Shown piece after piece: positions 1 to 32,342 of a stretch of 64,000 nt of DNA. The notes beneath the pieces are model-generated. The model made no database searches. It was not told the origin of the DNA and saw nothing but the letters and a program-made list of their open reading frames with translations. Numbering within the stretch: the stretch's first letter is position 1; every line of letters starts with the position of its first letter. Source of the DNA: Candidatus Uhrbacteria bacterium RIFCSPLOWO2_01_FULL_47_17 (lineage in GTDB: Bacteria; Patescibacteriota; Patescibacteriia; UBA9934; GWF2-40-263); assembly GCA_001791305.1 (NCBI GenBank), contig MGEI01000004.1, positions 61,101-125,100 on the forward strand, given 5' to 3'. The position numbers and the translations under genes are program-made.

Positions 1-2
1 AG

Positions 3-93
3 TTGATCCAAAAAGGATCTGTACGCGGAACAATGTATGATTGGAATAAAACAGCAGCAAAGACATGGGAAATTCTGCGCGGTCTGGTATAAT
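3..93 (+). CDS. 3' end (30 codons) of an upstream gene running off the window edge; ends TAA inside the TATAAT box of the next gene
   Basis: Open frame from position 3 (…LIQKGSVRGTMYDWNKTAAKTWEILRGLV*); protein-like composition; no start in window. Confidence 0.25.
85..93 (+). promoter_or_regulatory. Extended -10 box TGGTATAAT 8 nt upstream of the trmB-like ATG (leaderless-type start)
   Basis: tggtataat at 85-93, ATG at 102; no SD between. Confidence 0.45.
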
Positions 94-101
94 CAAATCC
101 T

Positions 102-875
102 ATGGATCAATTGTTAACAGAATTAAAGCGTCTTGGCCTTTCGGAAAAAGAGGCGCAGGTTTATCTTTCCGCCCTCGAACTTGGACCCGCGCCGGTTCAA
201 GATATTTCGCATAAAGCAAAAGTGAACCGCGCAACCACGTATGTCATGATCGAGGCGCTCGCAACGCGCGGGCTCATGTCCACGTTTGTGAAAGGGAAGA
301 AACGTTTTTATGTTCCGGAAAGTCCGGATCGTTTGATGTCGATCCTTCGCATTCAACAAAAAGAGTTGGAAGAAAAACACAACGAATTTCAAAAAACATT
401 ACCAATGCTTCTCGCGCTGTTTAATGCAGAAGGGGCGAAGCCGCAAATTCGGTATCTCGAGGGATCAGAAGGTTTGAAAACCCTTCGCGAGACGTTTGAA
501 AAAATGGAAGGGGAGTTTGTGGAAATTGTTCCGTATGACGATGTTCTTGCCACAAGCGAGATCATGGATGATCACGAACGTCATACGCGCGAATTGCATT
601 TAGCAAAAACGCCGCACCGCGCGATTGTGGTGATGGAGAATCCAGATCCATCAAAGATTCCAAACGTTGGAGTTGGAGAAGTACGATTTGTTTCCTCAAA
701 AGAGTTTCCGATGCACGGAGAAATTATTGTGCGTGGAAATCATGTCTTTTTGTTCTCGTACAGATCTGCTGTGCTTGCGGTTGTAATTATCAGTAAAGAA
801 ATTGCCGATGCTGTGCGTGGATTATTTAATTTAGCTTGGAGAGGGGCTGCGGAATATCCATCAAAAAAATCTTAA
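102..875 (+). CDS. TrmB-family HTH transcriptional regulator
   Basis: N-terminal wHTH (LSEKEAQVYLSALELGPAPVQDISHKAKVNRATTYVMIEAL) plus C-terminal TrmB-like domain; 257 aa. Confidence 0.7.
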   Translation: MDQLLTELKRLGLSEKEAQVYLSALELGPAPVQDISHKAKVNRATTYVMIEALATRGLMSTFVKGKKRFYVPESPDRLMSILRIQQKELEEKHNEFQKTLPMLLALFNAEGAKPQIRYLEGSEGLKTLRETFEKMEGEFVEIVPYDDVLATSEIMDDHERHTRELHLAKTPHRAIVVMENPDPSKIPNVGVGEVRFVSSKEFPMHGEIIVRGNHVFLFSYRSAVLAVVIISKEIADAVRGLFNLAWRGAAEYPSKKS

Positions 876-914
876 GTTTTTTTCAAAAAAAGAATCGTCG
901 AACGGTTCGACGAT
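876..914 (-). terminator. Rho-independent terminator oriented for minus-strand transcripts leaving the GC-rich island (perfect palindrome ATCGTCGAACGGTTCGACGAT, then U-run on minus strand)
   Basis: Palindrome 894-914; rc gives hairpin followed by UCUUUUUUUG. Confidence 0.5.
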
Positions 915-1325
915 AGGGAAGGACAGGAAGAGGCTGCTCACCAAGGTGGGAGCGGACGTGTGAGAACATTCAAAGAGCTGTCAGAAAGTGAGAACGGAGT
1001 TCGACGGGCGTATCCTGGGAAAAGAAGTCAGCTACCGAGCGCGCAGTGCATGTGTGGTTTGATTGCCGCGGGATTCCCAAGGAGAGGATTCCTTGAGTTG
1101 GCATACATGCGTAGGGCTCTTTTTGTAGCATCGTTCAATTCACGCGCAATCGCCGTCATGACACAGACCCCTGGAGAAGAGCTGTCATGACGTGATTTCG
1201 GATACGGGTTACGGAACTCATACGTACCTCATTTGACAGACATCTGTGCCATCACTTGTCACCTCTTCCTCTCGTTTGGAAGAGAAGATAAATCTATCAT
1301 GTTTTTGGAAAAATGTCAACATTAT

Positions 1326-1358
1326 AAACAAAAACACCCGTTAGGGTGTTTTTTCTCG
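1326..1358. terminator. Bidirectional intrinsic terminator (AAAAACACCC-GTTA-GGGTGTTTTTT)
   Basis: 6-bp GC stem 1334-1349 flanked by A-run and T-run; lies at left edge of GC-rich island. Confidence 0.55.
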
Positions 1359-1479
1359 TTTTGAGGGAGAGATTGGTCTTTCGACCTATTCACATCACGA
1401 GAGATCATGAGGTGGATAGGTCGAGCCGCGCGAGATGCGAGAGAGTGCAGCAGCGCGACTGGTTGAGGGTTGAAATGGG

Positions 1480-1815
1480 TTACCCAAGCGTCTTCAGGAT
1501 CGCGCCACCGATGTGGATGCCGGCAAGTCCGGCGTAGACCACGCTCGTAAGCGCAACACCAATCCGCGAGAGCAGAAGGTGGCGATGGCTCCAAAGGATC
1601 CCTGCCGCGATTACGACCAAGAAGATCTTCGCGATTGCGAACGTGTGCACTCCGTGAAGGAGGGCGTGGTTCATGATCGGATTCGCTTCGGTCGCGAGTC
1701 CGGATTGGATCCAGTAGAGCGTCGCACCTGCGTCGAGGAGATTCAGTATGCACAGAATCATCTCAGCGCGACGAAACAGAATCACCTGCTCGAGTGCCTT
1801 TGCGATGTCCGACAT
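1480..1815 (-). CDS. Small polytopic membrane protein (possibly DUF5658-like); first gene of GC-rich island
   Basis: 111 aa from ATG (MSDIAKALEQ…) preceded by GGAGGA SD; 3-4 hydrophobic helices; GC ~60%. Confidence 0.45.
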   Translation of the reverse strand: MSDIAKALEQVILFRRAEMILCILNLLDAGATLYWIQSGLATEANPIMNHALLHGVHTFAIAKIFLVVIAAGILWSHRHLLLSRIGVALTSVVYAGLAGIHIGGAILKTLG

Positions 1816-1857
1816 GTCATCCTCCAAAACGTTTTGGGTACGATGATTCTAGAGCCC

Positions 1858-1880
1858 CCTCTCCTTTCGAAGGAGAGGGC
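1858..1880. repeat. Perfect 10-bp GC-rich hairpin CCCTCTCCTT-TCG-AAGGAGAGGG ~40 nt upstream of the 1480-1815 gene; related copy upstream of rlmN (27626-27650)
   Basis: Exact inverted repeat seen in sequence; similar CCCTCTCC…GGAGGG hairpin 10 nt upstream of rlmN start. Confidence 0.5.
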
Positions 1881-2742
1881 GGGGGGAGAGGTGTCGCATG
1901 AGAATTCAGATTCCACAAATCACTTTGCGATTTCTGAAGACTGCGCGACGGAACTGCGTGAAAATGGGTAGCTTTCCCACTTCACGCAGCCCGTCGCGCG
2001 AGGTTCAACAAGGCTCCGTCAGAGATCATCATCGAGGTTCCGGTTCTCCTCGATTTGTCTTAGATGAGCAGATATCATCTCCAGAGTTTGTGGATGCGTG
2101 CCAACATCCTGATCGATCTCGTTGACCATCGATCGTTCTGGTTTCACCAAGTCCTTGGTACTTATACTAGGCGTCTTGCAATTCGACGCCCCAAGGTGCA
2201 GCTTCAGATTTTTTCGGACCAACATTCAGTCCTATCGATCGCTTGTGACACGATCGATAAAATCCTAGGATGTTTTACATGCTTACGTCGACAGCTGATC
2301 GTCAACGCTGCATCGGGAACAGAAGATGTACATGGATCCTCCTTGATCCTGTCGTTGTGCTCGCTCCCAATCGGCGGAGAGCGAACAGGTTGCGCCACAA
2401 AGCACACTCAAATGCGACCGGTGCCATCAAAGGCTAACCGAGCCGCGAACCGCCGGGCGCGTGCGATACCCGCCGGCAAACATGTCCGACCTTCAAATGG
2501 CCGAACCGAGGTCGTTACGCACGGCGCGTATACGAGCTCGGAAAGCCGGGCGATGGTTCGTGGAGTGTCCACTAGCATCGCCCAAGTTTCCAATTCGTAG
2601 ACTTGAGATCTTCACCGGCCAATGGAGGGCCAGGGTCTCTTTTTTTCTTCATGCTTCGATCGCCTAACATCGAGCATTGCTTTCCTGAGGGATGACGCTT
2701 ATCTCAATGGTGACTCCTTGTGTTTCGTTGAGGGTTGGTCGC

Positions 2743-2889
2743 TCAGCGCGTGATCTTCTTGATCAGACCGCGGGCCACATCCATGCACTTGAAGCACGCG
2801 ACGAGGCCGAAGGTCAAAACCCGAACGGTCAGCGGGGCGAGATCGTCGAGAAATTCTCGATGCTCGGCCTTGAGAGCTTCTTCGCTCAT
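2743..2889 (-). CDS. Small hypothetical protein (48 aa, MSEEALKAEHREFLDDLAPLTVRVLTFGLVACFKCMDVARGLIKKITR)
   Basis: GGAGG SD 5 nt upstream of ATG; stop of upstream small ORF overlaps its SD (AAGTAGGAGGTTCCCATG); GC-rich island. Confidence 0.45.
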   Translation of the reverse strand: MSEEALKAEHREFLDDLAPLTVRVLTFGLVACFKCMDVARGLIKKITR

Positions 2890-2898
2890 GGGAACCTC

Positions 2899-3024
2899 CT
2901 ACTTCTTCTTGCCGAACGGGTTGCGGACCCACTCGAGGACCGCAACGCCAAGGGCGAGGGGGATGAGGATGACCATCAGGCCAACCGGGGTCGGCATGTG
3001 GGCGTCGATTTGCTTCTGGGTCAT
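2899..3024 (-). CDS. Small single-TM membrane peptide (41 aa, MTQKQIDAHMPTPVGLMVILIPLALGVAVLEWVRNPFGKKK)
   Basis: GGAGGATAC-ATG SD; hydrophobic core; translationally coupled to next small ORF. Confidence 0.45.
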   Translation of the reverse strand: MTQKQIDAHMPTPVGLMVILIPLALGVAVLEWVRNPFGKKK

Positions 3025-3057
3025 GTATCCTCCGGATCGTCGCGCGATGCGAGCGAT

Positions 3058-3427
3058 CTAGTTGTAGGTGAGCGCGCGCGCCCGCTTTTCGAGGAGCGGG
3101 AGCAGAGCGATGACTTCGTTCGACGACAGGTGAACCATCCACTCCGACGTGTTCATGCCGATCACGTGGCCGAGCTTGAACGCACGGGTAAGCTTGCGCA
3201 CACCGTTGCGTCCGATGAACTCGCCGTTGTCGCCGATGATCCAGGCCGGGGTCACGCCGAAGCGCTTGACCAGCCAGGTTTCGGAGACGCGATCGATTTC
3301 GCGCTCGGCGAATTCCATCTCGGCCTCGCACTTGAAGAGATCGAGGTCGAAGCCGGCTTCGACGAGGGTCAGTTCCAGTTGCGTGAGACGGCTGCTTTTG
3401 CCCGATTGGGCGATCTGCAGGTTCATG
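3058..3427 (-). CDS. Hypothetical protein (123 aa from ATG; alternative GTG start at 3495 gives 145 aa)
   Basis: ATG preceded by GAGG SD; ORF-track 3058..3495 begins at a GTG without SD; GC-rich island. Confidence 0.45.
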
Positions 3428-3515
3428 TCTGCCTCGTGCCTCGAGATTCTCGAGAGCATTCTGACTGTTGAGAAATCAGGTACCTTCCGATCCACAAAGA
3501 TGGAGGCAAGGGATC

Positions 3516-3643
3516 CAGTGACCTCCCGAAGGCGGTGTAGACCATGAATATCTTGCGTATGAAATGAGTAAGCTTGCGCCTAGTCAAGCCATTTGATATT
3601 CGCTGGGTGTCTCTTTCAAAGACGCCCAGTTGCTCTCTCCTCC
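3516..3643. repeat. Copy R1 of a ~130-nt duplicated leader/regulatory element (second copy 5892-6027)
   Basis: ~80% identity over ~95 nt with R2 (cagtgacc[t/g]cccgaagg…catga[a/g]tatc[t/g]tgcgtatg[a/g]aatgagt…tcaagccatttgata…tttcaaagacg…gctctctcc); sits immediately upstream of minus-strand operon. Confidence 0.6.
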
Positions 3644-3674
3644 ATTTTTGTGGGGCGAAGGGGGAAGGGCTGCA

Positions 3675-3806
3675 GAGTGAAAAAGTGGAAAAGTGAAAGA
3701 GTGAAGGAAGGAAATTTACTATTTGACGATTTGTTTAAAGAACAATCAAATAAATAATTTCCTTCACTTTTTCACTCTTTGACTTTTTTACTTTGTTTTC
3801 TTTCTC
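3675..3806. repeat. Purine-tract inverted-repeat element (AGTGAAAGAGTGAAGGAA arms around AT-rich loop), copy 1 of 4
   Basis: Left arm gagtgaaaaagtggaaaagtgaaagagtgaaggaagg, right arm ttccttcactttttcactctttgactttttt; low-GC element inside GC-rich island. Confidence 0.55.
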
Positions 3807-3848
3807 TGCAAGATGCCGCGAGCGTTTGCTCGTGATCTCTTGGGAGAC

Positions 3849-3893
3849 GGTCGATGAGGTGTAGCGAAGTAAGTGCTACATGCCTCATCGACC
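3849..3893. repeat. Strong hairpin GGTCGATGAGG(TGTAGC…GCTACA)CCTCATCGACC downstream of island gene D
   Basis: 11-bp perfect outer stem plus 6-bp inner stem; not followed by U-run. Confidence 0.45.
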
Positions 3894-3947
3894 GCAAGGT
3901 CTTTGTTTAAGAAGTCGTTAGACTCGACTTATGTGCAGGCTTGAGAC

Positions 3948-5120
3948 CTAGCCCTTGCGATTGCCCTTCTGCTGGAAGCGGCGGGGCTGGGTCTTCTGGG
4001 CCTGGGGGCCGGTGTAGAAGGCGGCGTGGAGCTTGTCCTGCTCCGCACTCGCCTCATACACAGCCGCGTTGGTCTCGAGGTCGCCGAGGATCTCCGTTTC
4101 GGCCTTGGCGACCGACTGGGGATTCTCGATGAACTTCGCGGCGCACTTCGGGCAGAGGGCGTAGTGGGTCATCAAGTGACTCACGTCCACCGGGCCACGC
4201 TTCGCCTCGTAGTTCATCTCCTGCATGTCCTCGAGCCGGGGGGCCTGCATGTCGTCGACCGAACCGACGAACGCCGTGCCCTTTTCGAGCGCGTGCTCGC
4301 ACTCGCGACCCTGGACGCACCGGACGAACGTCTCGCCAGTGCGGGGGTGCTTGAGCGGCTGGCCCAGGAAGACGGTCTTGCGGAAGTCCGAGTCCTGCTT
4401 GCGCCGCGCCGCCTTCTGCTCTTCGACCCGCTGCTTGCTCGCCGCCGCCCGCGCCTCTTCGGGGCGGACGATGTCGAGGGCCCTGTCGAGGAACATCAGG
4501 TCGTTGCGGTTGAGACCCCGCTGCATGGCGCCCTTGGCCGAGACCGCGTAGTTGCGCAGGTCGGCTTCGGTGGTGCGGCGATCGAGTTTCGTGTCGAGCA
4601 GGGCGAGCTTGAGAACCAGCATCTTTTCCACCGGACGCGTTTCGCCGGTGATGACGCAGGTCCACTCCTCGACCGGTTTCGCCTCGACCTTGTCCTCGAC
4701 CTTGGGGGCCTCGGGCTTGGTCTCGACGACGGTCTCGGTCGCTTCGGCCACGAGGGCTTCCACGATCTCGACCACCGGCGCGGGCATCAGCGACGCGAGC
4801 TGGTTGTTGTTCAGGCCAGCGAGGATGTCGCTCGGCGAGAACTTCTGCAGCTCGGCCACGTTGGCGCCGCCCTCGACCAGGCTCATCACCTTGTCGAGCG
4901 TGTCCACCGCCGGCGCCTTGCCGTCGGGGCACAGCCACTCGATGTCGACGCCCTTCTCCACGAGCGCCACGGTCGAGTTGAGCACTTCCTTGCCGATCGT
5001 CGCCAGGTTCTCGCGCTTCGCAGTGCGCAGAGCCTCGGACTTGTCGGCCTTGGCCGTGTTCGGATCGATGGTGACGCCGCGGTTGAGGAACTTGGCGACG
5101 AAGGTATGGGTCGTGGACAT
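3948..5120 (-). CDS. Hypothetical acidic protein with C-terminal Cys/His zinc-ribbon-like motifs (390 aa)
   Basis: ATG (MSTTHTF…) with GGAG SD; ORF-track 490-aa version extends through an in-frame GC-rich leader; C-terminus C-x5-C-x-H … C-x2-C; acidic/Lys-rich middle (KPEAPKVEDKVEAKPVEE). Confidence 0.5.
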   Translation of the reverse strand: MSTTHTFVAKFLNRGVTIDPNTAKADKSEALRTAKRENLATIGKEVLNSTVALVEKGVDIEWLCPDGKAPAVDTLDKVMSLVEGGANVAELQKFSPSDILAGLNNNQLASLMPAPVVEIVEALVAEATETVVETKPEAPKVEDKVEAKPVEEWTCVITGETRPVEKMLVLKLALLDTKLDRRTTEADLRNYAVSAKGAMQRGLNRNDLMFLDRALDIVRPEEARAAASKQRVEEQKAARRKQDSDFRKTVFLGQPLKHPRTGETFVRCVQGRECEHALEKGTAFVGSVDDMQAPRLEDMQEMNYEAKRGPVDVSHLMTHYALCPKCAAKFIENPQSVAKAETEILGDLETNAAVYEASAEQDKLHAAFYTGPQAQKTQPRRFQQKGNRKG

Positions 5121-5478
5121 GATGAACTCCGTGCGCGAGACTAGCTCGACGCGTTGTGAACCTATAGGAACACTGAATGCCCTTTTGGGGCTAGGACAAC
5201 TTTGGCCACCCGGCCTCAGCATCACAGATTCCGCAAGCTTGCACTTACGAACTCTGAAAGCTCGGCGACGGACTGTGTTGAAAGGGAGTGCCTTTCGCCA
5301 CAGCCGTCGCCAGATCTCGAGAAGAAGACTCGTGCCGCTCAACACTCGAGATGTTGAGTTCACTGTATGTATCCACATCCAATCGCCTGACATTGGATGC
5401 TTCTGTTTGCTGTTAGGCAATCATCGTTCTAACCTTTCCTTTGCTCTGTAACCTGAGCTAGGTGTGAGTTGAGGTCGG

Positions 5479-5607
5479 CTAGTCGACGCTGCGCTGGGCG
5501 GCGGTGACGAGCTTGGCGGCGGCGATGAGCTCGTTCGGGGTCTTGAACTGGCGCAAGTCGATGTAGGCCCGTTCGAGAATCTCGACTGCGGCAATGATCT
5601 GAATCAT
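5479..5607 (-). CDS. Small hypothetical protein (42 aa, MIQIIAAVEILERAYIDLRQFKTPNELIAAAKLVTAAQRSVD)
   Basis: GGAGTACCC-ATG SD; GC-rich island. Confidence 0.4.
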   Translation of the reverse strand: MIQIIAAVEILERAYIDLRQFKTPNELIAAAKLVTAAQRSVD

Positions 5608-5651
5608 GGGTACTCCGTGCGAACTCGGTGGTTCGCGTCTGGGTGGTTGGG

Positions 5652-5801
5652 CTACTTGACGAGGACCAGAGGCGCGAGCGAGCTGGCGAAGAGCAGCAGC
5701 ATGGCGACTTCGCCGGTGCAGAGCTTGCCGAGGATCTCGAACGCGCGATCGCTGCTCGTGGGGATGAAGTACGGGAGGGAGACGGTGAGGTTCTTGATCA
5801 T
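5652..5801 (-). CDS. Small hydrophobic-tailed protein (49 aa, MIKNLTVSLPYFIPTSSDRAFEILGKLCTGEVAMLLLFASSLAPLVLVK)
   Basis: GGAG 9 nt upstream of ATG; first ORF downstream of repeat R2. Confidence 0.4.
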   Translation of the reverse strand: MIKNLTVSLPYFIPTSSDRAFEILGKLCTGEVAMLLLFASSLAPLVLVK

Positions 5802-5891
5802 GGTGTCGATCTCCGTGCGAACTCGATGGCTCGCGTCTGGGCTGTGGACTGGTCGATTCGTTCGACGCAGGAATCCGAGGGTAGGTCGATT

Positions 5892-6027
5892 CAGTGACCG
5901 CCCGAAGGCTGGTGTGAATCATGAGTATCGTGCGTATGGAATGAGTGAGGGTTAACCCAGTCAAACCATTTGATACTCACCGCTCTCATTCGCCGAAGCG
6001 TTTTGAAAGACGGTTTGCTCTCTCCCC
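5892..6027. repeat. Copy R2 of the duplicated ~130-nt leader element
   Basis: See R1; the palindrome at the equivalent position differs (GGGTTAACCC here vs AAGCTT in R1). Confidence 0.6.
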
Positions 6028-6211
6028 TCAGGTTTCTGAGTCGAGTTACATAAAAAGACCCATTGCTTTGCGTATCCAAGCATGAGAGATACGAAAACCA
6101 ATCGGTCTTATTATTTGCTATCAGTGAATGGGACTGGATAGCTCAGCTCTCTCCCCGTTTGAGTTGTAAGGTGAAGAAGTGATCTTGTCGCTTCGTCATC
6201 TTGATGGACAT

Positions 6212-6240
6212 ACTATATCACTTTTTGTCAGTTTTGTCAA
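6212..6240 (-). promoter_or_regulatory. Sigma70-like promoter TTGACA-N17-TATAGT on minus strand, reading into the GC-rich island
   Basis: rc of 6212-6240 = TTGACAAAACTGACAAAAAGTGATATAGT; lies in low-GC flank at island right boundary. Confidence 0.45.
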
Positions 6241-6318
6241 GACCCACACTTAGGAAATAGTGAGAATTAGGCTAGAATTAGCCAAATCAAGTTGTCAGGA
6301 AGTTCTGGAATGGAAAGG

Positions 6319-6415
6319 GGTAGCCGCAGGCTTCAGCCTGCGCCGGGTGGGAATATGGCTATTTCATATTTCGAGATACACCTTCGGGTACACGCAGGCT
6401 GAAGCCTGCGGCTAC
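6319..6415. repeat. Perfect 23-bp inverted repeat (GTAGCCGCAGGCTTCAGCCTGCG … CGCAGGCTGAAGCCTGCGGCTAC) with 51-bp spacer, followed by T-run; contains the GGCTTCAGCC motif
   Basis: Exact arms 6319-6341 and 6393-6415; then cgcgtttttatgttataat. Confidence 0.6.
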
Positions 6416-6425
6416 CGCGTTTTTA

Positions 6426-6434
6426 TGTTATAAT
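6426..6434 (+). promoter_or_regulatory. Extended -10 box TGTTATAAT 10 nt upstream of holB ATG (short/leaderless 5' end)
   Basis: tgttataat 6426-6434, ATG 6445, no SD. Confidence 0.4.
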
Positions 6435-6444
6435 TTCCACACCT

Positions 6445-7407
6445 ATGCCACCATCCCCATTTTACAACCTTATTGGACACGAACGTGTTCAGGATGTTTT
6501 GGGTCGAATGATTGAACGAGACCGTTTGCCGCACGCCTTTTTGTTTGTGGGGCCGCATCATCTGGGAAAAACGCTTGTGGCGAGGCAGCTGATTCGGGCG
6601 ATCTCGAAGGAGGCCGAAGGAGCGGCGTCTATGGACGTGATCGAACTTGGGTGTCTTACGGATGAGAAGACGGGAAAGAAGAAGGCACAGATTTCGGTTG
6701 AGCAGGTTCGCGAAGTTTGCGAGAGACTTGCGATGAGTGCAATGAACGGTGGATGGAAAATTGCGTTTATTAAAAATGCAGATGCGCTTTCAAACGCGGC
6801 GGCGAATGCGCTTTTGAAAACACTTGAAGAACCAAAAGGGAAAACGTTGTTCATTCTGCGCGCGCCTTCCGTTGAGTCTGTTCTTCCAACCGTTGCGTCA
6901 CGTTGTCAGGTGATGCGTTTTCATCCGGTGTCGAGAACTACGCTTGCAACAGCACTCGTCAAAAAAGGACACGCGAAACCAGATGCGGAAATCGCAGCGG
7001 CCATCTCGCTTGGTCGCCCGGGTCGTGCATTTCGGTATCTCACAAAAAGTGAAGACCGATCACAAACAGATATTGGGGTGGAACAAGCGATCGATTTGTT
7101 CTCCTCAGACATTGCAAAACAAATTCGACTTACATCCGGACTGCTTCCAAAAGAAGATGTAAACAAACGTTCGGCCGCAGATCAGACGGTACGATTATGG
7201 CAGCGCGTATTGCGCGATGAATTATTGCGATCTGTTGGATGCGAAGAACTCGTTGTATATCGATCGGACACTTCCCGTAACCCAAGGCTTCAGCCTTGGC
7301 ACGTCTCTCGACTGATCGCCACACTCAAAAAAACAGAAGAGGGAAGAACGGCGATTGCGCATAATACAAATCCACAATTAACGTTAGAGCACATTTTATT
7401 TTCGTGA
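6445..7407 (+). CDS. holB: DNA polymerase III delta' subunit (clamp-loader AAA+)
   Basis: Walker A GPHHLGKT, clamp-loader layout, 320 aa. Confidence 0.85.
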   Translation: MPPSPFYNLIGHERVQDVLGRMIERDRLPHAFLFVGPHHLGKTLVARQLIRAISKEAEGAASMDVIELGCLTDEKTGKKKAQISVEQVREVCERLAMSAMNGGWKIAFIKNADALSNAAANALLKTLEEPKGKTLFILRAPSVESVLPTVASRCQVMRFHPVSRTTLATALVKKGHAKPDAEIAAAISLGRPGRAFRYLTKSEDRSQTDIGVEQAIDLFSSDIAKQIRLTSGLLPKEDVNKRSAADQTVRLWQRVLRDELLRSVGCEELVVYRSDTSRNPRLQPWHVSRLIATLKKTEEGRTAIAHNTNPQLTLEHILFS

Positions 7408-7454
7408 CATACGTGGGTGGGCATAAAACCCACCCCTACAATCGCAAATTTTTT

Positions 7455-8498
7455 ATGAAAAAAATTTTACCTCTTTTAATCCTGTTCGTTCTTGCGGGTG
7501 CGGGATGTTCCGCGGCGCCAAAAGCAAATAAAGCGGACGGTGGAATTTTGAAAACCGTTGATGCGGGAAAAATTTGGTCACAAAGTTCGCTTGTGCCAAC
7601 AGCAAAGGGAATCGGCACACTCGCAACCGCAAACATCATTACCATGGAAATGGATCCGCAGGATAAAAATGTCTTGTATGTGGGAACGCGTGAAGATGGA
7701 TTTCTCTATTCGGATGACGCCGGAGTTTCTTGGCGCCAACCAAGAGATAAAGCGCTCTCAACCGGATTTATTCCATCCATCAAGATGGATCCAAAAAATG
7801 TGTGTACGGTTTATGTCGCAAAGGGTCCGCGTCTTTACAAGACCATCGACTGTATGCGCACGTTTCAAAATGATGCGTACATTGAGAGTCGTGAAAAAGT
7901 GAGTGTCGTGAAAGTGGCGGTGGATTGGTTTAATCCGCAAACGGTTTGGATTGGACTTTCAAATGGTGATATTCAAAAAAGTTTGGATGGCGGAAAAACG
8001 TGGAGCAATGTGCTTCACGTGAAAGATGTCATTACAGATATTCTCATCAACCAATCCGACAGCCGCATGGTGCTTGTTTCAACATCGTTAAAAGGTATGA
8101 TGAAAACCGGAGATGGCGGAGCAACATGGGAAGCCGCAGAGCTGAAAGGAATGGCCGGAGCGACAACGGTTTATGATTTGATTCAATCAAAAAATTCTCA
8201 GACGGTGATTGCGGCAACGAAATATGGTCTCATTCGTTCCACAAGTTTTGGGGCGGTTTGGGAACCGATCAAACTTGTGACCGCGCCAGGGCAAGTAAAT
8301 ATTCAAGCGGTCGGCATGGATGTCTCAAATCCGGACGTTCTGTATTACGCAACCACCGCAACGTTTTATAAATCGCAAGACGGCGGCGCAACCTGGCAAA
8401 CAGGAAAGCTCCCCTCAAATCGCCTCCCTCGCGCGATTCTCGTTGACCCAAGTTTGAATACCGTGTTATATATCGGAGTCGCAACGGAGGCGAAGTAG
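7455..8498 (+). CDS. Lipoprotein with BNR/sortilin-type repeats (Ycf48-like beta-propeller)
   Basis: Signal peptide with lipobox LAGAGC; repeated S-x-D-x-G-x-T-W motifs (DAGKIW, DGGKTW, DGGATW). Confidence 0.7.
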   Translation: MKKILPLLILFVLAGAGCSAAPKANKADGGILKTVDAGKIWSQSSLVPTAKGIGTLATANIITMEMDPQDKNVLYVGTREDGFLYSDDAGVSWRQPRDKALSTGFIPSIKMDPKNVCTVYVAKGPRLYKTIDCMRTFQNDAYIESREKVSVVKVAVDWFNPQTVWIGLSNGDIQKSLDGGKTWSNVLHVKDVITDILINQSDSRMVLVSTSLKGMMKTGDGGATWEAAELKGMAGATTVYDLIQSKNSQTVIAATKYGLIRSTSFGAVWEPIKLVTAPGQVNIQAVGMDVSNPDVLYYATTATFYKSQDGGATWQTGKLPSNRLPRAILVDPSLNTVLYIGVATEAK

Positions 8499-8584
8499 CC
8501 CAAGGCTTCAGCCTTGGTTCTCCATGTTAGATACAATGATCAATCAGATGCAGTGACCAAGGCTAAAGCCTCAGATTACGATAA

Positions 8585-9151
8585 ATGAAATCGACTATGC
8601 ATATATTCCTGTCATCCAAGAAGCCTTTATTCGACGCGGTACTTGATCACTTGCATAAAGAACTCGGAACCCTTCGTACCGGACGCGCAACTCCACAACT
8701 TGTGGAGGATATTCGTGTAAGCGCATATGACTCGACGATGGAGCTTAAAGGACTCGCATCGATTTCGGTTCAAGATGCAAAAACAATTGTGATTGATCCA
8801 TGGGATAAGGGATTAACGCAAGCGATCGAGAAAGCGATTCGTGATTCTGGAACAGGCCTCTCGCCCGCAGCAGATGGCGGAGTGATTCGCATTATGCTTC
8901 CTCCGATGACAGAGGAAAATCGCGTGAAGCTTGTGAAGCTCATGAAAGAAAAATTGGAAGATTCACGCATCGCGCTTCGAGGAGTGCGTGAAGGGGTTCG
9001 TGATGAGATTCTCGAGAAGGAGAAGAACAAAGACATGAGCGAAGACGAAAAGTTCAAGTTGCTCGACGAACTCGAGAAGCTGACGAAAGAGTTTAATGAG
9101 CAGATCAGTGCAATGGGAGAGAAGAAAGAAGATGAAATCATGACCGTGTAA
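8585..9151 (+). CDS. frr: Ribosome recycling factor
   Basis: LRTGRATPQLVEDIRV…; 188 aa, typical RRF length and motifs. Confidence 0.9.
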   Translation: MKSTMHIFLSSKKPLFDAVLDHLHKELGTLRTGRATPQLVEDIRVSAYDSTMELKGLASISVQDAKTIVIDPWDKGLTQAIEKAIRDSGTGLSPAADGGVIRIMLPPMTEENRVKLVKLMKEKLEDSRIALRGVREGVRDEILEKEKNKDMSEDEKFKLLDELEKLTKEFNEQISAMGEKKEDEIMTV

Positions 9152-9153
9152 TT

Positions 9154-10479
9154 ATGGAGCATTCAAAAATCACCATGGAAAAAATTGTTTCACTCGCGAA
9201 AACTCGCGGGTTTGTTTTCCCTGGTTCGGATATTTACGGCGGACTCGCAAACTCATGGGACTACGGTCCACTTGGAGTTGAATTGAAAAACAACATTAAA
9301 CAAACATGGTGGAAAATGTTTGTGCAAGAGCGCCTCGACATGGTTGGGATCGATGCCGCACTCATCATGAATCCAAAAGTCTGGGAAGCGTCGGGGCACG
9401 TCGCTACGTTTAGTGATCCGCTCGTCGAATGTAAAACATGTCATGAGCGTTATCGCGCCGATCAGATCGATCTTGGGGCGCCATGTGTAAAATGCGGCAA
9501 CAAGGGAACGTTTACCGATCCTGCATCGTTTAATCTCATGATGAAAACATGGCTCGGTCCAAAAGAGGACGCGAGTGCTGTTGCGTATTTCCGACCAGAA
9601 ACCGCGCAGGCGATGTTTGTGGATTTTCCGAATGTGATTACATCGAGTCGTAAGCGCGTTCCGTTTGGAATGGCACAGATTGGAAAAGCGTTCCGCAATG
9701 AAATTACTCCGGGAAATTTTATTTTCCGCACACGCGAGTTTGAACAAATGGAGATCGAGTACTTCGTGCATCCATCCGATTGGGAGAAGTTCTTTGAAGA
9801 GTGGCTCGCGAATATGTACAAGTTTATGGACCGCGTCGGAATAGACGCGGCTCGTTCGCATAATCTCGAAGTCGCAAAAGATGAGCTCGCGCACTACTCG
9901 AAACGTACAGTCGACATTGAATTTGATTATCCGTTCGGACGCAAAGAATTGTACGGACTCGCATATCGCACAGACTTCGATCTTTCCACACATGCGAAAT
10001 ACTCTGGATCGAACATCGTGTATACAGACCCAATGACAAACGAGAAATATGTTCCGCATGTGATTGAACCCTCTTTTGGTGTCGATCGCACACTTCTCGC
10101 TGTTCTCCTCTCGGCCTACGACGAGGAAACAGTCGCATCCGAAGAAGGGGAAGGAGACACACGCGTTGTTTTGCGATTCAAAAAAGAAATTGCCCCAATC
10201 AAGATTGCTATTTTGCCACTCAGTAAAAAAGAAGAACTTTCAAACGTCGCGCGCCCAATCGCAGAAGCGCTTGCAAAATATTGGCGTGTTGACTATGACG
10301 AAACGCAATCCATTGGAAAGCGTTACCGACGTCAAGACGAAATCGGAACGCCGTATTGTGTCACGGTCGACTTCGAGTCACTCGAAGACAAAGCAGTCAC
10401 CATTCGCGATCGCGATACGATGAAACAAGAACGGGTACCAATTGCCGAGCTCGAAGTGTGGTTCAAAAAACAATTTTAA
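9154..10479 (+). CDS. glyQS: Glycine--tRNA ligase (homodimeric class II type)
   Basis: FVFPGSDIYGGLANSWDYGPLGVELKNN…, class II motifs, 441 aa. Confidence 0.9.
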   Translation: MEHSKITMEKIVSLAKTRGFVFPGSDIYGGLANSWDYGPLGVELKNNIKQTWWKMFVQERLDMVGIDAALIMNPKVWEASGHVATFSDPLVECKTCHERYRADQIDLGAPCVKCGNKGTFTDPASFNLMMKTWLGPKEDASAVAYFRPETAQAMFVDFPNVITSSRKRVPFGMAQIGKAFRNEITPGNFIFRTREFEQMEIEYFVHPSDWEKFFEEWLANMYKFMDRVGIDAARSHNLEVAKDELAHYSKRTVDIEFDYPFGRKELYGLAYRTDFDLSTHAKYSGSNIVYTDPMTNEKYVPHVIEPSFGVDRTLLAVLLSAYDEETVASEEGEGDTRVVLRFKKEIAPIKIAILPLSKKEELSNVARPIAEALAKYWRVDYDETQSIGKRYRRQDEIGTPYCVTVDFESLEDKAVTIRDRDTMKQERVPIAELEVWFKKQF

Positions 10480-21486: not shown

Positions 21487-22827
21487 TTAGGGAATGGACT
21501 TCAAGGCTTCGTCGAACCGGTTGATGGCGGCGATGGTGATCGCCGGATCTTGGGCGTAGGAGAAGCGGATGAAGTTTGGTTGGAGAAACGGCGTGCCGTG
21601 GACGACCGCGATGCCATGCTCGCACGCGAGGTAGCTTCCGAGGTCTTTCACGGTTTCAATGTGTGTGGTTGTGTTTGCGAGCGCGCCATTGAAGAATTGA
21701 TCCGGGCGCAGTCCTCGCCCGAGCCATTTCGTCACGTCCACAAAGGCGTAGTAGCCTTGGTCGGCGATCGAGGTGTACCCGCGCGCGGTCATTTCACGGC
21801 GAAAGATGTTGCGACTCGCACTCGTGCGTTTCGTGATGCGTTTCACCCAAGGGTGATTGCGCACGTCCGAACTTGAGTAGACCTCGAGGGCACACGCTTC
21901 GCCCAGAACGTTCGGCAGAACGGTGTGCGAGGCGATGCCTTGGATGGTTTTTGCGAATTTTTCGTCACCGCATGCGAGATGTGCCATGCGCACATTGCTT
22001 GCACCGACGGACTTTGTGAGGCCATCGAGAAGCGTCACACATGCGCGATCTTCTGCAGAGAAGGATCCGAGAATTTCGGCCCAATCGTAGAGCGGGACAT
22101 CGTCGTCGATCACGAGTTGGTACATGAGATCGATGAGGATGTATTTGATGCCATGAAATCGTGCGCGCTCGATGAGCGTTTTGATTTCATTTGGCGAATA
22201 CCACGCACCTGTTGGATTGTCCGGAGTGGTGATGATGAGCGCATCGGCTGTGCCGCACAGGCCGAGGCATGCGGTGATGCCATCGGGCGTCATGCGCAGA
22301 TTCGTTTTGCTCTGAGCCGGAGCGCAAAGCAGATTGAATCCGTTTACATACGTCCCGTGGGCGTAGGAAACCCACGGTGCTGCGGATGTGACGACTGTGA
22401 GGCCGATTTTGCCGGTGAGCATGTGGATTGCCTGATACCACTTTTGAAGGGCATCACGACCGCCGTCTGTCACGAGAATGTTGTCGGGAGTCAGACCAAT
22501 TCGGTCGAGTTTCCAGAAATTCTCGAGCAGAGCCTGTCGAACACGCAGACTTCCGTTTGGAGATCCGTACGCCGTTGTTTGCGTGTTTGGCAAGAAGAGA
22601 ACGAGCGCGTTTGCAAGTTCGTCAGGACGAATCCCGCTGAGTGTTGCTCCGCCGTCACCTTGAGAGGCGTCATAGACGGGCGACTCTGGATGCTGTCGTG
22701 TGTACACCCCCAGTTCCGACTTGATGAGGAACATGTTCGAGATCGGGAGTTGCCGACGCATGGAGGCGACCGGTCGAATCAGTGCTTTCTCAGGGTCAAA
22801 CCAACGCGCGACTTGGGACATGAGCAT
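21487..22827 (-). CDS. Class I/II PLP-dependent aminotransferase
   Basis: LTKSVGASNVRMAHL matches the S-x-S-K…G-x-R PLP-lysine region; ~446 aa. Confidence 0.75.
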   Translation of the reverse strand: MLMSQVARWFDPEKALIRPVASMRRQLPISNMFLIKSELGVYTRQHPESPVYDASQGDGGATLSGIRPDELANALVLFLPNTQTTAYGSPNGSLRVRQALLENFWKLDRIGLTPDNILVTDGGRDALQKWYQAIHMLTGKIGLTVVTSAAPWVSYAHGTYVNGFNLLCAPAQSKTNLRMTPDGITACLGLCGTADALIITTPDNPTGAWYSPNEIKTLIERARFHGIKYILIDLMYQLVIDDDVPLYDWAEILGSFSAEDRACVTLLDGLTKSVGASNVRMAHLACGDEKFAKTIQGIASHTVLPNVLGEACALEVYSSSDVRNHPWVKRITKRTSASRNIFRREMTARGYTSIADQGYYAFVDVTKWLGRGLRPDQFFNGALANTTTHIETVKDLGSYLACEHGIAVVHGTPFLQPNFIRFSYAQDPAITIAAINRFDEALKSIP

Positions 22828-23055
22828 TTTCTTCCTTTGTCCTCATGAAATTGAGGCGGCGGTACTTTAAACTAAATGGGATGATTTGTCCAAATCAGCC
22901 AAGTGTTGTAAAACAATACTATTAATTCTCTGAATGTTTTTATGTTTGGAAAAAATGAATCAAAAACAAAAACAACACATGATAATTTAAGAAAAAAGGT
23001 GTTCAACATGTTTGATAGAATGAGGGGTGAGTGTTTTTTCAAAAAAGCCGCATAA

Positions 23056-23091
23056 AAAAGACTCCCCGTCGCCGAAAGGCTATGGGGAGTT
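23056..23091 (-). terminator. Rho-independent terminator closing the kinase-vWA-PK-like operon
   Basis: rc: ACTCCCCATAGCCTTTCGGCGACGGGGAGT then CTTTTTTAT, immediately after the 23092 stop. Confidence 0.6.
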
Positions 23092-24159
23092 TTAGGTATA
23101 AGCCTCTTCGAATACCCGAAAGGCATTGATGGCCGTGTTGAGGAGGTCCTTGTGAAGACAGAGTTCGTCACAAAGGAGAAAACGTTTGTAGCCGATCTCG
23201 GCGAGCCAAGCGAGCTCAGAGAAGTCAGCACAGGACGGGGTTGGGTCGTGAAAGATGCGCACGATCAGGTCGAGAAGGTTCGGATCCTGAGCATGCGCAT
23301 GAATAGCCTGTAGCGCGCGGAGTTTTTCCGGTGGCGGCATGGCGCGTGTTGCAATCGAGAGCAAGATTCGTGAACCTACGCAGGCTTCCGGGTCTTTTTT
23401 GATAATCAGCTTCACAGCCTTCAGAATATCGTGCGGTCGCTGCACTTCGATGAAGAGATCTCCACGAGCTGCCGCGAGTACCACACCATCCGTCTTTTTG
23501 AATGCATTCTCAACGAACCGCAATCCTTTTTCGTTTTCGATCTTGAGCCAGAGTTCCGCGTCTTGTCCGACGAGTTCTCGAAGTTGATCGACATCCGATT
23601 GGGATTCCGTGTAGGAGAGAAAAAATCGGGTGAACCCCGCACGTTTCGCCGCCTCAATCTTGCGAAGCTCGTGATCTGTGAACAGATTTCCGAGGACTTC
23701 GAGACTGGGGTGTCGAATATGCAGAGATTCACCGTGATTCACTTTGTATTTCGGGCCGAACGTTCGGCCGTCTTTGAAGATCAATCTTCGACCACCGTCT
23801 TCGATCCAATCCAGTGTTGCAAAGTCCGCACCGGCCTTGAAGGCAACAATGCGAGCGCTTGGATCACGCAGATCGATACGAATCGGATGGTTCAATATGA
23901 CTTCGAGGTGACCTTCGTGCTCGCGAGCTTCCTCGACGCGCAGTTGGCGACCTTTGACGTCGTAGAACAGGGGAACGGGCGCGTCACGAACTTGTAGGTT
24001 CGAGATCGCCGCTTCCAATTCTTCGATCGGAGCCGTGGCCGGATTCACCCGGATTCCGTCGAGACGCGCATCAATTGCGAACTCGGGGAAGTGGGCGAAT
24101 CCGGGCCACAGCGTTGCGATCAACTCAAATGAGTGATCCGACATCATTCCCCTCGTCAT
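23092..24159 (-). CDS. Minimal pyruvate-kinase-fold protein (PEP/pyruvate-binding TIM barrel with B-domain-like insert, no C-terminal regulatory domain)
   Basis: RVNPATA (cf. PK RLNFSHG), KGRQLRVEE (cf. KGPEIR), KIENEKG…DGVVLAAARGDLFIEV (cf. SKIENQEG…DGIMVARGDLGVEI), SIATRAM (cf. CATQMLESM); likely start at internal Met after GAGGGG (24144); overlaps vWA gene 3' end. Confidence 0.55.
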   Translation of the reverse strand: MTRGMMSDHSFELIATLWPGFAHFPEFAIDARLDGIRVNPATAPIEELEAAISNLQVRDAPVPLFYDVKGRQLRVEEAREHEGHLEVILNHPIRIDLRDPSARIVAFKAGADFATLDWIEDGGRRLIFKDGRTFGPKYKVNHGESLHIRHPSLEVLGNLFTDHELRKIEAAKRAGFTRFFLSYTESQSDVDQLRELVGQDAELWLKIENEKGLRFVENAFKKTDGVVLAAARGDLFIEVQRPHDILKAVKLIIKKDPEACVGSRILLSIATRAMPPPEKLRALQAIHAHAQDPNLLDLIVRIFHDPTPSCADFSELAWLAEIGYKRFLLCDELCLHKDLLNTAINAFRVFEEAYT

Positions 24160-25081
24160 CCAACCCGTGGGTGATCGAGCGGCCGTCGGAGACCGCGTTC
24201 GCGAAGATCGGCTTCAGCGCCGCCATGACGACACGCACTTGCTCGGGCGTCTGACGACTCTCAAGTTCGCGCTTGAACGCTTCGATCTTGCCGGAGTAAT
24301 GACCGAGAATGCCGAAGATCACGTCCACGATGCGGTTCTCATCCGGAAGCAGAGCAATGTGATCCGCGCCGATGAGATCTTCCCAAGTCTTCGTGATCCA
24401 TGCCTGATCGCTGCTGCTGTCATACGGCTTTTGGATGAGGTACACGGAGAATTTCCGTGTGAGCTCTGCGAACACTTCCTTCGTGGTCATCTTCTTGTCG
24501 ATTTTCACACGTGCAATATCACGCGCACGCGCGACCGTCACTTCATCATACGGCGCTTCGTCCGTGTTGAAGATCACAATCGGCTTGCGGCTTTGGTTTG
24601 GCACATGCACGTTGCGTGCGATGTAGAGTGCCGCGAGTTCGGAAGTCTCATGACCGCCGCCTCCGCCACCTTTCGTGTGAACCAGTTCGCCGAGCCGAAC
24701 TTCGTGTCCTGCTTTCCCGCGCGTGAATTCACGCACTTGGAGCGGATACCGCTCGTTGTGCATTGCGTCACCGAATGCGCAGAATGCGACGTCTGTATCT
24801 TCGGAAAGATACATCGTGCGCAGTTCGTGATCTAGGTACAAGGCTTTCGTGCGTACCGTGATCGGCCAGCTCGACATCGAACCAGTCATGTCGTTTACGA
24901 GCAGGAGAGCGTTCTCTGCCGCGGTCGTGATGGATTCCGGGAGCAAATCCCAATCCTTCGTGCCTTTCTGTTCCGCTTCCGCATAGCTGCGATTTGCATC
25001 ATGCGTGTACGTTGCGCGGGCCCGCGGCGGATCATAGTCCGGCATCCAGCTTGAACCTTTGTAGTTAGATGATTCACTCAT
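24125..25081 (-). CDS. von Willebrand factor type A (vWA, MIDAS) domain protein, TerY-like
   Basis: MIDAS motif LLVNDMTGSMSS; ~318 aa; ATG overlaps kinase TGA (ATGA) with AGGAG SD inside kinase 3' end. Confidence 0.7.
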   Translation of the reverse strand: MSESSNYKGSSWMPDYDPPRARATYTHDANRSYAEAEQKGTKDWDLLPESITTAAENALLLVNDMTGSMSSWPITVRTKALYLDHELRTMYLSEDTDVAFCAFGDAMHNERYPLQVREFTRGKAGHEVRLGELVHTKGGGGGGHETSELAALYIARNVHVPNQSRKPIVIFNTDEAPYDEVTVARARDIARVKIDKKMTTKEVFAELTRKFSVYLIQKPYDSSSDQAWITKTWEDLIGADHIALLPDENRIVDVIFGILGHYSGKIEAFKRELESRQTPEQVRVVMAALKPIFANAVSDGRSITHGLDDEGNDVGSLI

Positions 25082-31462: not shown

Positions 31463-31514
31463 ACGGCCTCCTCGAGTCGGTAAACAGACGTTATCAGATT
31501 GGTGGAGCGTGTCA

Positions 31515-31548
31515 AAAAGAAAAAACCGCTCACGTGGGTGAGGCGGTT
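31515..31548 (-). terminator. Intrinsic terminator (AACCGCCTCACCCACGTGAGCGGTT + U-run), member of a 3-copy similar-terminator set
   Basis: Hairpin overlaps stop of 31547 gene; motif AAAAAACCGCTCACG shared with 32205 and 32490 copies. Confidence 0.55.
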
Positions 31549-32176: not shown

Positions 32177-32204
32177 AAAACCGAATCTGTCAATCGGTAG
32201 CGAA

Positions 32205-32240
32205 AGAAAAAACCGCTCACGAGTGTGAGACGGTTGAAAA
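32205..32240 (-). terminator. Intrinsic terminator after minus-strand tRNA pair (AAAAAACCGCTCACGAGTGTGAGACGGTT family)
   Basis: Hairpin + U-run on minus strand directly 3' of tRNA-Lys. Confidence 0.5.
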
Positions 32241-32243
32241 AAG

Positions 32244-32317: not shown

Positions 32318-32342
32318 GACTGTCGAGCGTGTCTCGACACGG

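Follow-up and report, generated by a model that had tools for sequence, protein, structure and literature searches.

A conserved locus of structured RNA elements and GC-rich small-protein genes between holB and trmB of Candidatus Uhrbacteria

What kind of locus combines a sharp jump in base composition with a mode of translation initiation that its host hardly uses? The question is raised by a segment between holB and the gene of a TrmB-family regulator (trmB) in Candidatus Uhrbacteria bacterium RIFCSPLOWO2_01_FULL_47_17, within a 64,000-nucleotide (nt) stretch of contig MGEI01000004.1 (positions 61,101 to 125,100), the whole of which was analysed and is termed the window. A preliminary description, made from the sequence alone, had recorded a guanine-plus-cytosine (GC)-rich island of small open reading frames (ORFs) led by Shine-Dalgarno (SD) sequences, and had read it as a horizontally acquired cassette, such as the remnant of a plasmid or phage. 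We found that the segment carries two copies of a structured RNA, termed R, holds the same position in related genomes, and keeps its composition while its sequence turns over. With moderate confidence, we read it as a vertically inherited, Uhrbacteria-specific operon in which cis-regulatory RNA leaders act on SD-led small-protein cistrons.

A consensus scan outlined a minus-strand transcription unit of ~4.9 kb between holB and trmB, running from a putative sigma-70-type operon promoter at 6240-6212 to a predicted bidirectional intrinsic terminator at 1330..1353 that would end the operon (window positions throughout). The promoter (TTGACA-17-TATAGT) is TG-extended, with 11 of 12 consensus matches, and has an equivalent at the matching position in two related loci, L009 and L016; the terminator has a 10-bp stem with T runs on both sides. 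Both elements, together with another terminator at 914-894, lie where the preliminary description had placed them.

R is a ~170-nt RNA with a four-way junction of helices P1-P4, of which the window holds exactly two copies on the minus strand, R1 (5860..6037) and R2 (3485..3650), as found with a covariance model (CM) built from an alignment of 18 distinct copies from 13 loci plus the window. These copies, which correspond to the duplicated leaders noticed earlier, score 172 and 154 bits and have minimum free energy (MFE) z-scores of -3.2 and -3.1, respectively; their single-sequence MFE folds also give P1-P4. In the alignment, 22 of the 37 base pairs show compensatory (double-sided) changes and 97.3% of the cells are paired, compared to 32-52% when the 3' partners are slid by 1-3 columns, and none of 500 column shuffles reached the observed values. 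R1 scores 172 bits on the minus strand vs 18.7 bits on the opposite one, and this strand-specific score, together with invariant G-U pairs, indicates that the RNA is transcribed in the sense of the ORFs. R is a well-supported structured RNA class, new to Rfam.

The closing helix P1 pairs 5' ..AAAUnGGAGG with CCUCCnnUUU.. 3', and in all copies its 5' strand contains GGAGG or GGGG and its 3' strand CCUCC or CUCCC. The junction reads GAGAGAGCAA, and its unpaired nucleotides are conserved. P2 is a variable hairpin, P3 runs GAGUAUC...CAAAUGG...(variable tip)...CCAUACGCA...GAUACUC, and P4 is GAUUCAC-ACC-GCC-UUCG-GGC-GGU-CACUGAAUC; the overall length ranges from 165 to 225 nt. A search of Rfam 15 (4227 families) gave no match to R at the gathering threshold, its best lax hits being chance-level microRNA (miRNA) and small nucleolar RNA families. 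The same collection matched nothing in positions 1-10000 or in L009 and L016, and only tRNAs in the whole window. The motif is also absent from IMG/VR, and nothing was found in the literature on Uhrbacteria non-coding RNAs, on Candidate Phyla Radiation RNA motifs, SD or leaderless usage, or on the R motif sequence.

Among GTDB representatives, R occurs in Uhrbacteria metagenome-assembled genomes (MAGs) and in three contigs binned as Gammaproteobacteria. The latter (L021, CAZTTQ010000005.1; L023, CAYHDY010000040.1; L024, CAYOCD010000008.1) are labelled 'uncultured Gammaproteobacteria' and carry holB or trmB genes 44-86% identical to those of the window; because these genes are Uhrbacteria-like, the contigs are probably mis-binned. 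One pattern hit in a Lachnospiraceae MAG (L018) was rejected as a chance match, as it lacks the GGAGAGAG box and gives no CM hit.

Each locus that spans the full holB-trmB interval has two R copies; the one exception, L009, contains a tandem pair and a third copy. The R1 orthologues group apart from the R2 orthologues (the latter in at least 12 loci), so the duplication is older than the split between these species. Of the 28 R copies listed, most precede an SD-led ORF rich in G+C at third codon positions (GC3), which usually starts at +24 to +141 nt and in many cases at +56 to +69. This does not hold for copy c of L009 and the L024 copy, with no ORF within 420 nt, for one copy at a contig end, for two with low-GC3 hits, or for four whose first ORF lies 236-349 nt away. 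The following protein depends on the type of copy: R1-type elements precede a tail-anchored transmembrane (TM) peptide of 39-50 amino acids (aa) at +56 to +69 nt in eight loci, whereas R2-type elements precede either a 117-124-aa protein of the GFDL-LFKCEAE family or a 43-67-aa single-TM peptide of the AGI-C family.

Protein look-ups, together with pattern scans of GTDB species representatives and metagenomes, yielded the related loci. Wherever a locus includes holB, this gene adjoins the segment, with identities to the window copy from 90% down to 43% (84-90% in close relatives, 43-45% in deep ones), and trmB follows at the opposite end if the contig is long enough. This shared position indicates that the locus is ancestral to a broad Uhrbacteria clade, including GC-rich members such as L016 (Uhrbacteria MAG RIFCSPHIGHO2_01_FULL_63_20, locus GC 0.64) and L021 (on a 62%-GC contig). 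A comparison with related genomes had been suggested as a way to define the ends of an island; every locus reaching the flanks instead showed the same holB-trmB position, and no empty site was seen among these loci, which were retrieved via island features, so that empty sites were not searched directly.

Could the segment be a chimera or a contaminant, as the compositional jump alone might suggest? This explanation, against which the preliminary description had cautioned, is refuted: the holB/island and island/trmB junctions were assembled identically and independently in ENA and in Logan contigs of 4.9-8.2 kb, and the same architecture recurs in more than 15 other contigs and MAGs. Nor did homologues turn up elsewhere. 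For the three ORFs searched, all homologues with a name belong to Uhrbacteria, every contig examined was a holB-trmB locus of Uhrbacteria, and no match was found in PHROG, in phage and plasmid collections (tblastn/blastn) or in viral contigs. A sequence comparison of the ORFs, also proposed at the outset, thus yielded homologues or family-level counterparts in related loci for six of the seven, orf48 having none, and revealed neither a donor nor a mobile-element homologue for the three searched.

Within this fixed frame, the parts of the locus differ in their conservation. By blastn against relatives, the non-coding blocks are best conserved (75-94% nt identity), whereas the ORFs are weakly conserved or replaced. 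The conserved blocks are A0+R1 (6205-5860), B (5455-5215), R2 (3650-3485), D (2745-2335) and E (2012-1925), and the non-coding blocks of the locus amount to ~1.5 kb. The locus is also mosaic: block B is 94% identical to that of L026, whereas the adjacent downstream 390-aa ORF is only 33% identical. The ORFs named orf49, orf41, orf48 and the DUF5658 ORF have few or no counterparts in close relatives, L009 and L016 keep R and synteny with unrelated ORFs, and the GC-rich loci L016 and L021 contain no homologue of any window ORF.

The base composition follows the same division. Against a background of ~45%, the GC excess extends from ~1350 to ~6000, with 56-58% over 1351-1800, 54-61% over 2250-3450, 59-68% over 3900-5250 (the peak, 62-68%) and 57-61% over 5400-6000, separated by troughs of 44-50% at 1950-2250 and 3450-3900. 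The preliminary description had therefore located the island correctly (~1320-6030) while overstating its uniformity, given as 60-68% GC. Ribosomal RNA operons are a frequent cause of GC peaks of ~5 kb; here, such an operon or another known structured RNA was ruled out by the Rfam nulls and the lack of a nearby tRNA. The excess lies almost wholly in third codon positions: G+C at the first, second and third positions of the seven ORFs is ~0.6, 0.4 and 0.71-0.94, respectively, compared to a GC3 of ~0.45 in host genes, and the non-coding blocks between the ORFs are at 0.41-0.55. Variable segments are thus the GC-rich ones, and conserved segments have host-like GC. Across relatives, the GC3 of the island ORFs stays at 0.66-0.96, whereas the G+C content of R follows the host, with 0.45-0.55 in most copies vs 0.66-0.69 in GC-rich genomes.

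Four-fold degenerate sites were used to distinguish a maintained bias from a fading one. In holB and trmB, 47-55% of these sites differ between the window genome and its relatives, at a G+C content of 0.36-0.55, so that the divergence of the host genes is near saturation. In the 390-aa gene, 36-43% differ, about half of the changes being C<->G, and the G+C content is 0.84-0.94 in every lineage. The island sites have turned over and are still 84-94% G+C, which argues that the bias is maintained rather than left over from import. High GC3 is an equilibrium property of the island ORFs, not a fading import signature. Candidate causes are recurrent allele exchange with GC-biased gene conversion at a hotspot flanked by the RNA blocks, or selection acting on how the mRNA is composed, how stable it is or how it folds.

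The seven minus-strand ORFs are real coding sequences, with strong codon periodicity and identical gene calls on independent assemblies; all seven had been listed before, one with a boundary that is corrected here (3058-3426, not 3427). The first, orf49 (5652..5801, GC3 0.94, GGAG SD), encodes a tail-anchored single-TM peptide of the SLPYF family with a TM-like segment at residues 27-49 in Kyte-Doolittle windows, and its homologues lie 56-69 nt past R1 in L026, L030, L031, L020 and L023. It is followed by orf42 (5479..5607, GC3 0.88), an SD-led, soluble helical peptide of 42 aa with 60-62% aa identity in L006 and L017 and family members in L005, L025 and L030. In the distal half, orf122 (3058..3426, GC3 0.84) encodes a 122-aa protein of the GFDL-LFKCEAE family and starts 58 nt past R2. 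It has only five homologues and no phage match; the two named ones are from Uhrbacteria, and an unnamed one, P0021, lies on an R-bearing contig of Uhrbacteria type (L029). The single-TM peptide orf41 (2899..3024, GC3 0.90, GGAGG SD) has a TM-like segment at residues 8-35 and positional analogues past R2 in relatives, the AGI-C peptides, and orf48 (2743..2889, GC3 0.73, AGGAGG SD) encodes a 48-aa peptide without a homologue among relatives. The last, SD-led ORF (1480..1815, GC3 0.71) encodes a 111-aa membrane protein matching DUF5658 (Pfam PF18902; 62.1 bits vs a cut-off of 25.2, E = 9e-17, profile positions 2-82 of 82), with homologues in L030 and L031 at the matching position beside trmB. Both orf122 and the DUF5658 ORF match RIFCSPHIGHO2_02_FULL_47_44, and such protein matches assign the window to a Candidate Phyla Radiation bacterium of ~47% GC. 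The earlier picture of a one-strand region whose small proteins are SD-led and in part single-TM is borne out.

The largest ORF (3948..5120) encodes an orphan protein of 390 aa, identical (100%) to a hypothetical protein of Candidatus Uhrbacteria bacterium RIFCSPLOWO2_12_FULL_47_9. Its family counts 14 cluster representatives among 1.84 billion, and all members whose contig was checked sit in R-bearing Uhrbacteria loci. Of the acidic, cysteine-motif protein announced in the preliminary description, the acidity shrinks to a mild one (isoelectric point 6.0; 59 D+E vs 55 K+R), and the cysteines take the form of four residues, Cys155, Cys268, Cys323 and Cys326, invariant among the six closest homologues, a pattern that makes zinc binding probable. 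No Pfam or PHROG match was found, the best hit of a profile search against the PDB was a chance one (E = 0.025), and a structure search with an AlphaFold model gave no neighbour at significance; a first model was poor (predicted local distance difference test score, pLDDT, 62), and a second reached a pLDDT of 79, with >90 for most of residues 150-360. Identity to relatives is 27-61%, and it is 55-61% in genomes whose holB and trmB are at 86-90%; island proteins evolve ~3x faster than the neighbouring host proteins. The ratio of nonsynonymous to synonymous substitution rates (dN/dS) of this gene is 0.4-0.5, as taken from closer pairs alone, because extreme GC3 caps the apparent dS and distant pairs give values >1.

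The high GC content had been suspected of producing long spurious ORFs, and this is indeed the case. Dual coding by the long antisense ORFs was rejected, as synonymous-codon shuffles leave them equally open in eight of nine homologues and the ninth (L006) is unexceptional; the long antisense, plus-strand ORFs are a by-product of codon bias. As candidate genes, the plus-strand ORF 2064-2600 was rejected because it lacks codon periodicity and overlaps conserved RNA (block D), and the ORF 2692-3471 because it merely mirrors the pattern of the overlapping minus-strand ORFs.

Every island ORF has GGAG, GGAGG or GAGG 5-10 nt before its ATG, in agreement with the canonical SD originally assigned to each, and in related loci even unrelated ORFs share a ribosome-binding-site context near GGAG-UUCCC-AUG. 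By contrast, an SD-like 4-mer precedes just 8 of the 47 long host ORFs of the window, which we estimate to be near chance level. The host is SD-poor in this sense, as had been stated, although other parts of the window also contain SD-led genes of mildly raised GC content. In several first genes (e.g. those starting at 102, 6445, 14765 and 37017), a TATAAT box ends 7-10 nt short of the ATG, a spacing that suggests widespread leaderless mRNAs in this Uhrbacterium. The other SD-bearing genes of the window are its GC-richer ones, which fits an explanation of SD use by context.

Directly before orf42 and orf49 lies a 31-nt direct repeat (5613-5643 and 5811-5841, 94% identical). On the mRNA strand it reads CCCAGACGCGAxCCAxCGAGUUCGCACGGAG, a small hairpin plus SD, and represents a duplicated translation-initiation module.

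Besides R, the unit contains further conserved RNA segments on the same strand. The 5' leader A0 (6040..6205) has a GGGGAGAGAGC box and lineage-specific hairpin insertions, with 72-93% nt identity in nine relatives. Block B (5215..5455), ~240 nt directly upstream of the 390-aa ORF, is 80-94% identical; RNAalifold predicts 60 pairs in it, 14 of them with compensatory changes. Block D (2335..2745), a ~400-nt conserved non-coding RNA ending in AAGGAGGAUCC-AUG, is 71-84% identical in nine loci; compensatory changes affect 14 of its 99 predicted pairs, and its indels do not come in multiples of three. Behind that conserved end, a putative 16-aa micro-ORF (MYIFCSRCSVDDQLST) can be read at 2283..2333; its SD and ATG are conserved in four loci, and relatives carry a different ORF after this SD. 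Block E (1925..2012) is a hairpin module, GCGACGG...CCGUCGC AGCUUUCAGAG, with orthologues in L005, L017, L019 and L024. It is one of two instances of a hairpin module, S, that B and E have in common: S1 (5238-5318) lies within B, upstream of the 390-aa ORF, and S2 in E, upstream of the DUF5658 ORF, and the module is conserved in relatives.

Between the 390-aa ORF and R2, an AT-rich imperfect hairpin of ~60 bp (3655..3810, minus strand) formed by inverted repeats I1/I2 divides the operon into halves. Its MFE is -53 kcal/mol (z = -8.5), and it is a possible site of RNase III-type processing or attenuation. Its sole lax Rfam hits are sub-threshold miRNA precursors, as expected of a long hairpin.

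These observations lead us to propose that R, and probably blocks B and D as well, are cis-acting leaders that respond to a ligand or protein and gate the translation of downstream cistrons. The 3' strand of P1 (CCUCC) is complementary to the downstream GGAG, so that P1 formation would decide whether this strand is free to mask the SD. The start codons would lie hundreds to thousands of nt inside the transcript, whereas typical host genes are near a 5' end or in an AU-rich, SD-less context; leaderless or SD-less initiation might be unworkable so deep inside a long, structured, GC-rich mRNA, and SD sites would be used here for that reason. Some proteins would have been replaced by recombination at the boundaries of the RNA blocks, and an ancient acquisition or a continuing exchange of alleles within Uhrbacteria is possible.

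Several points weigh against this proposal. Transcription is something we infer from consensus matches to promoter and terminators. In the consensus fold of the linker between R1 and its ORF, two small conserved hairpins form, the SD is unpaired and no conserved SD-sequestering helix appears; what suggests the putative P1/anti-SD switch is sequence complementarity. No ligand or binding protein can be named for R, copy c of L009 and the L024 copy lack a detectable ORF within 420 nt, and the coupling of SD use to GC-rich context is our own argument. The regulatory-leader model gives no account of the maintained GC3 of ~0.9. In addition, the phylogenetic range of R may be understated, as exact-pattern scans catch only copies that keep most conserved bases.

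How do other explanations compare? A recently acquired island, the remnant of a phage or plasmid from a GC-rich, SD-using donor, would account for canonical SDs and a GC3 of 0.7-0.94 within a genome that is otherwise SD-free and at 45% GC, in which SD plus raised GC can mark acquired genes, as in other mildly GC-rich genes of the window. It is nevertheless very unlikely given the synteny across deep Uhrbacteria divergences, the host-like and conserved non-coding scaffolds, the persistence of GC3 through saturated synonymous turnover, and the failure to find homologues outside the Uhrbacteria locus. As the preliminary description had itself noted, signs of mobility are missing: no integrase, transposase or other mobile-element Pfam domain was found in the ten proteins scanned (seven from the island, three from its flanks), ARAGORN detected no tRNA within 7 kb, and a repeat scan gave no long direct repeats bracketing the region, to which the PHROG, phage, plasmid and IMG/VR nulls can be added. 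That description was largely right in its observations and not in its interpretation as horizontal transfer, which the above contradicts; over all its claims, the observation is partly confirmed and the interpretation partly supported. A hypervariable cassette-exchange locus, in which the RNA blocks serve as recombination anchors and the GC3-rich ORFs are circulating alleles, is less improbable, though still rather unlikely, and is partly compatible with the operon reading. It would draw its high GC3 from a GC-rich allele pool or GC-biased gene conversion, and would suit the coincidence of variable and GC-rich segments, the mosaicism against L026, the scarcity of homologues of several ORFs, the unrelated ORFs of L009 and L016, the dN/dS of 0.4-0.5, and the presence of the locus in Uhrbacteria genomes of 62-64% GC. 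However, no donor pool was identified, the window ORFs having no homologue in L016 or L021; the compensatory evolution of R, B and D points to selection on folded RNA, beyond recombination identity; the ORF families hold their order and position relative to R1 and R2; and a rise of GC3 from 0.45 to 0.9 by gene conversion would, in our judgement, be unusually large for bacteria.

If the peptides rather than the leaders are put in the centre, the locus resembles type I toxin-antitoxin modules, with the single-TM peptides as putative toxins and R1/R2 as translation-blocking leaders. In its favour are the peptides of 39-66 aa with a single TM segment that usually follow R (orf49, orf41 and those of relatives), the long, structured and conserved leaders with a strand complementary to the SD, the rapid evolution of the peptides and the duplication of the modules. 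We consider this explanation improbable, because the only plus-strand sigma-70-like site (6234-6261, by a weak consensus test) overlaps the main promoter and leaves no candidate gene for an antisense small RNA, and because the peptides belong to a fixed, syntenic single-copy operon with larger proteins (390 aa, 122 aa, DUF5658), not to scattered modules. No better founded is the opposite idea, in which R, perhaps with B and D, is a stable trans-acting or scaffold RNA cut from a polycistronic precursor, and the ORFs are passengers. The RNA blocks are the best-conserved parts of the locus, the conserved unpaired junction nucleotides suggest a tertiary fold or binding pocket, the 3655-3810 hairpin might be an RNase III site, and copy c of L009 has no following ORF; yet in eight R1-type copies the distance to the first start codon is nearly constant (+56 to +69 nt) and the ORF families are consistently tied to R1 or R2, both of which speak for a relation in cis, and the ORFs are clearly under coding constraint. 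None of the exchange, toxin-like and trans-acting explanations and the operon reading is mutually exclusive. An integron-like array of cassettes (a cluster of attC sites lacking integron-integrases, CALIN), with R as an attC-type site, is effectively refuted despite the one-orientation small ORFs with their own ribosome-binding sites, no promoters of their own and one promoter upstream, the structured repeats between ORF groups and the turnover of ORF content. An attC site is a single imperfect hairpin of 57-141 nt with R''/L''-L'/R' boxes and a GTTRRRY core, one per cassette boundary. Compared by architecture, R is a 165-225-nt four-way junction, its alignment shows no conserved GTTRRRY core, R1 and R2 take fixed orthologous positions, two per locus, rather than cassette boundaries, and the ten scanned proteins contain no integrase domain.

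Among known systems, translational riboswitches and orphan riboswitch candidates share with R a multi-helix junction with invariant unpaired nucleotides and strong covariation, a position 5' of an ORF in the same orientation, an SD-complementary P1 strand and occasional tandem copies. By contrast, R has no match in Rfam 15 and no conserved SD-sequestering linker helix, and is confined to one locus in one candidate-phylum lineage; the orphan small proteins encoded downstream give no clue to a ligand. The mRNAs of type I toxins (hok/sok, tisB/istR, zorO/orzO) likewise combine single-TM peptides of <60 aa with long, structured leaders and SD-complementary sequence, but here no antisense RNA gene was detected in the weak consensus scan, the operon is fixed and syntenic with larger proteins, and the leader, a four-way junction of 170 nt, is conserved even between deeply diverged relatives. 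Large orphan RNAs such as OLE, GOLLD, ROOL and raiA are also long, conserved, structurally complex, lineage-restricted and without an assigned function. They differ in sequence and structure, neither of which gave a match, and the RNA blocks described here are interleaved with ORFs in one predicted transcript. Genomic islands and integron arrays contrast in composition with their hosts and comprise one-strand small ORFs with their own ribosome-binding sites and variable gene content, but the present locus has an ancestral syntenic position and a maintained anomaly confined to third codon positions, and lacks an integrase domain in the scanned proteins, a regional tRNA, bracketing long direct repeats and mobile-element genes.

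Beyond the operon reading, we tentatively raise a bolder and less probable one, that the locus is a new kind of module in which a structured-RNA scaffold, with R as a new class of four-way-junction sensor of a ligand or protein, both regulates and delimits fast-exchanging small-protein genes, with GC3 maintained by an undescribed process. Candidates for this process are extreme GC-biased gene conversion at a recombination hotspot flanked by RNA, or selection on mRNA composition tied to SD-dependent translation; more speculatively, the genes might be adapted for expression in a GC-rich host cell of the episymbiont. Few regulatory RNAs of the Candidate Phyla Radiation have been characterised experimentally, and the locus adds a compact structured RNA class with strong covariation and at least two further conserved RNA domains. 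Its sharp GC and SD contrast mimics textbook horizontal transfer and is here a stable trait of an ancestral syntenic locus. A GC3 of ~0.9 beside genes at ~0.45 offers a natural test case for mutation bias vs biased gene conversion vs selection, and SD-led genes in an otherwise SD-less or leaderless organism a way to study how mRNA context relates to initiation mode.

Beside trmB, a separate minus-strand unit termed F (894..1319) has a predicted promoter of its own (TTGACA-17-TAGATT, 10 of 12 consensus matches), long untranslated regions (a leader of ~130 nt and >100 nt on the 3' side) and the putative terminator at 914-894. Its SD-led 43-aa ORF (1028-1159) shows 57-69% aa identity in four relatives. 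At the other end, the preliminary description had reported a perfect inverted repeat of 23 bp, which was found at 6320-6342/6393-6415 (6320..6415), in the interval from holB to the operon promoter, with a 50-nt spacer; extended, it covers 29 nt at 93%, and it is single-copy in the window. It has no counterpart in relatives (a coverage dip at 6400-6320), lies outside the conserved locus and therefore looks like a lineage-specific palindromic insertion.

Elsewhere in the window, mildly GC-rich genes with a GC3 of 0.55-0.71 lie at 21487-25081, 30833-36959 and 59149-59676 and include an aminotransferase, a pyruvate-kinase-like protein, a NUDIX protein, an isocitrate/isopropylmalate dehydrogenase and hypothetical proteins; of ten that were scanned, seven have an SD-like motif upstream. 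Their bias is much milder than that of the island ORFs, and these genes may truly have been acquired by horizontal transfer. An anomaly in the opposite direction is seen at 40396-53876, where a ~13-kb run of plus-strand genes has a GC content of 0.34-0.40 and a GC3 of 0.28-0.37.

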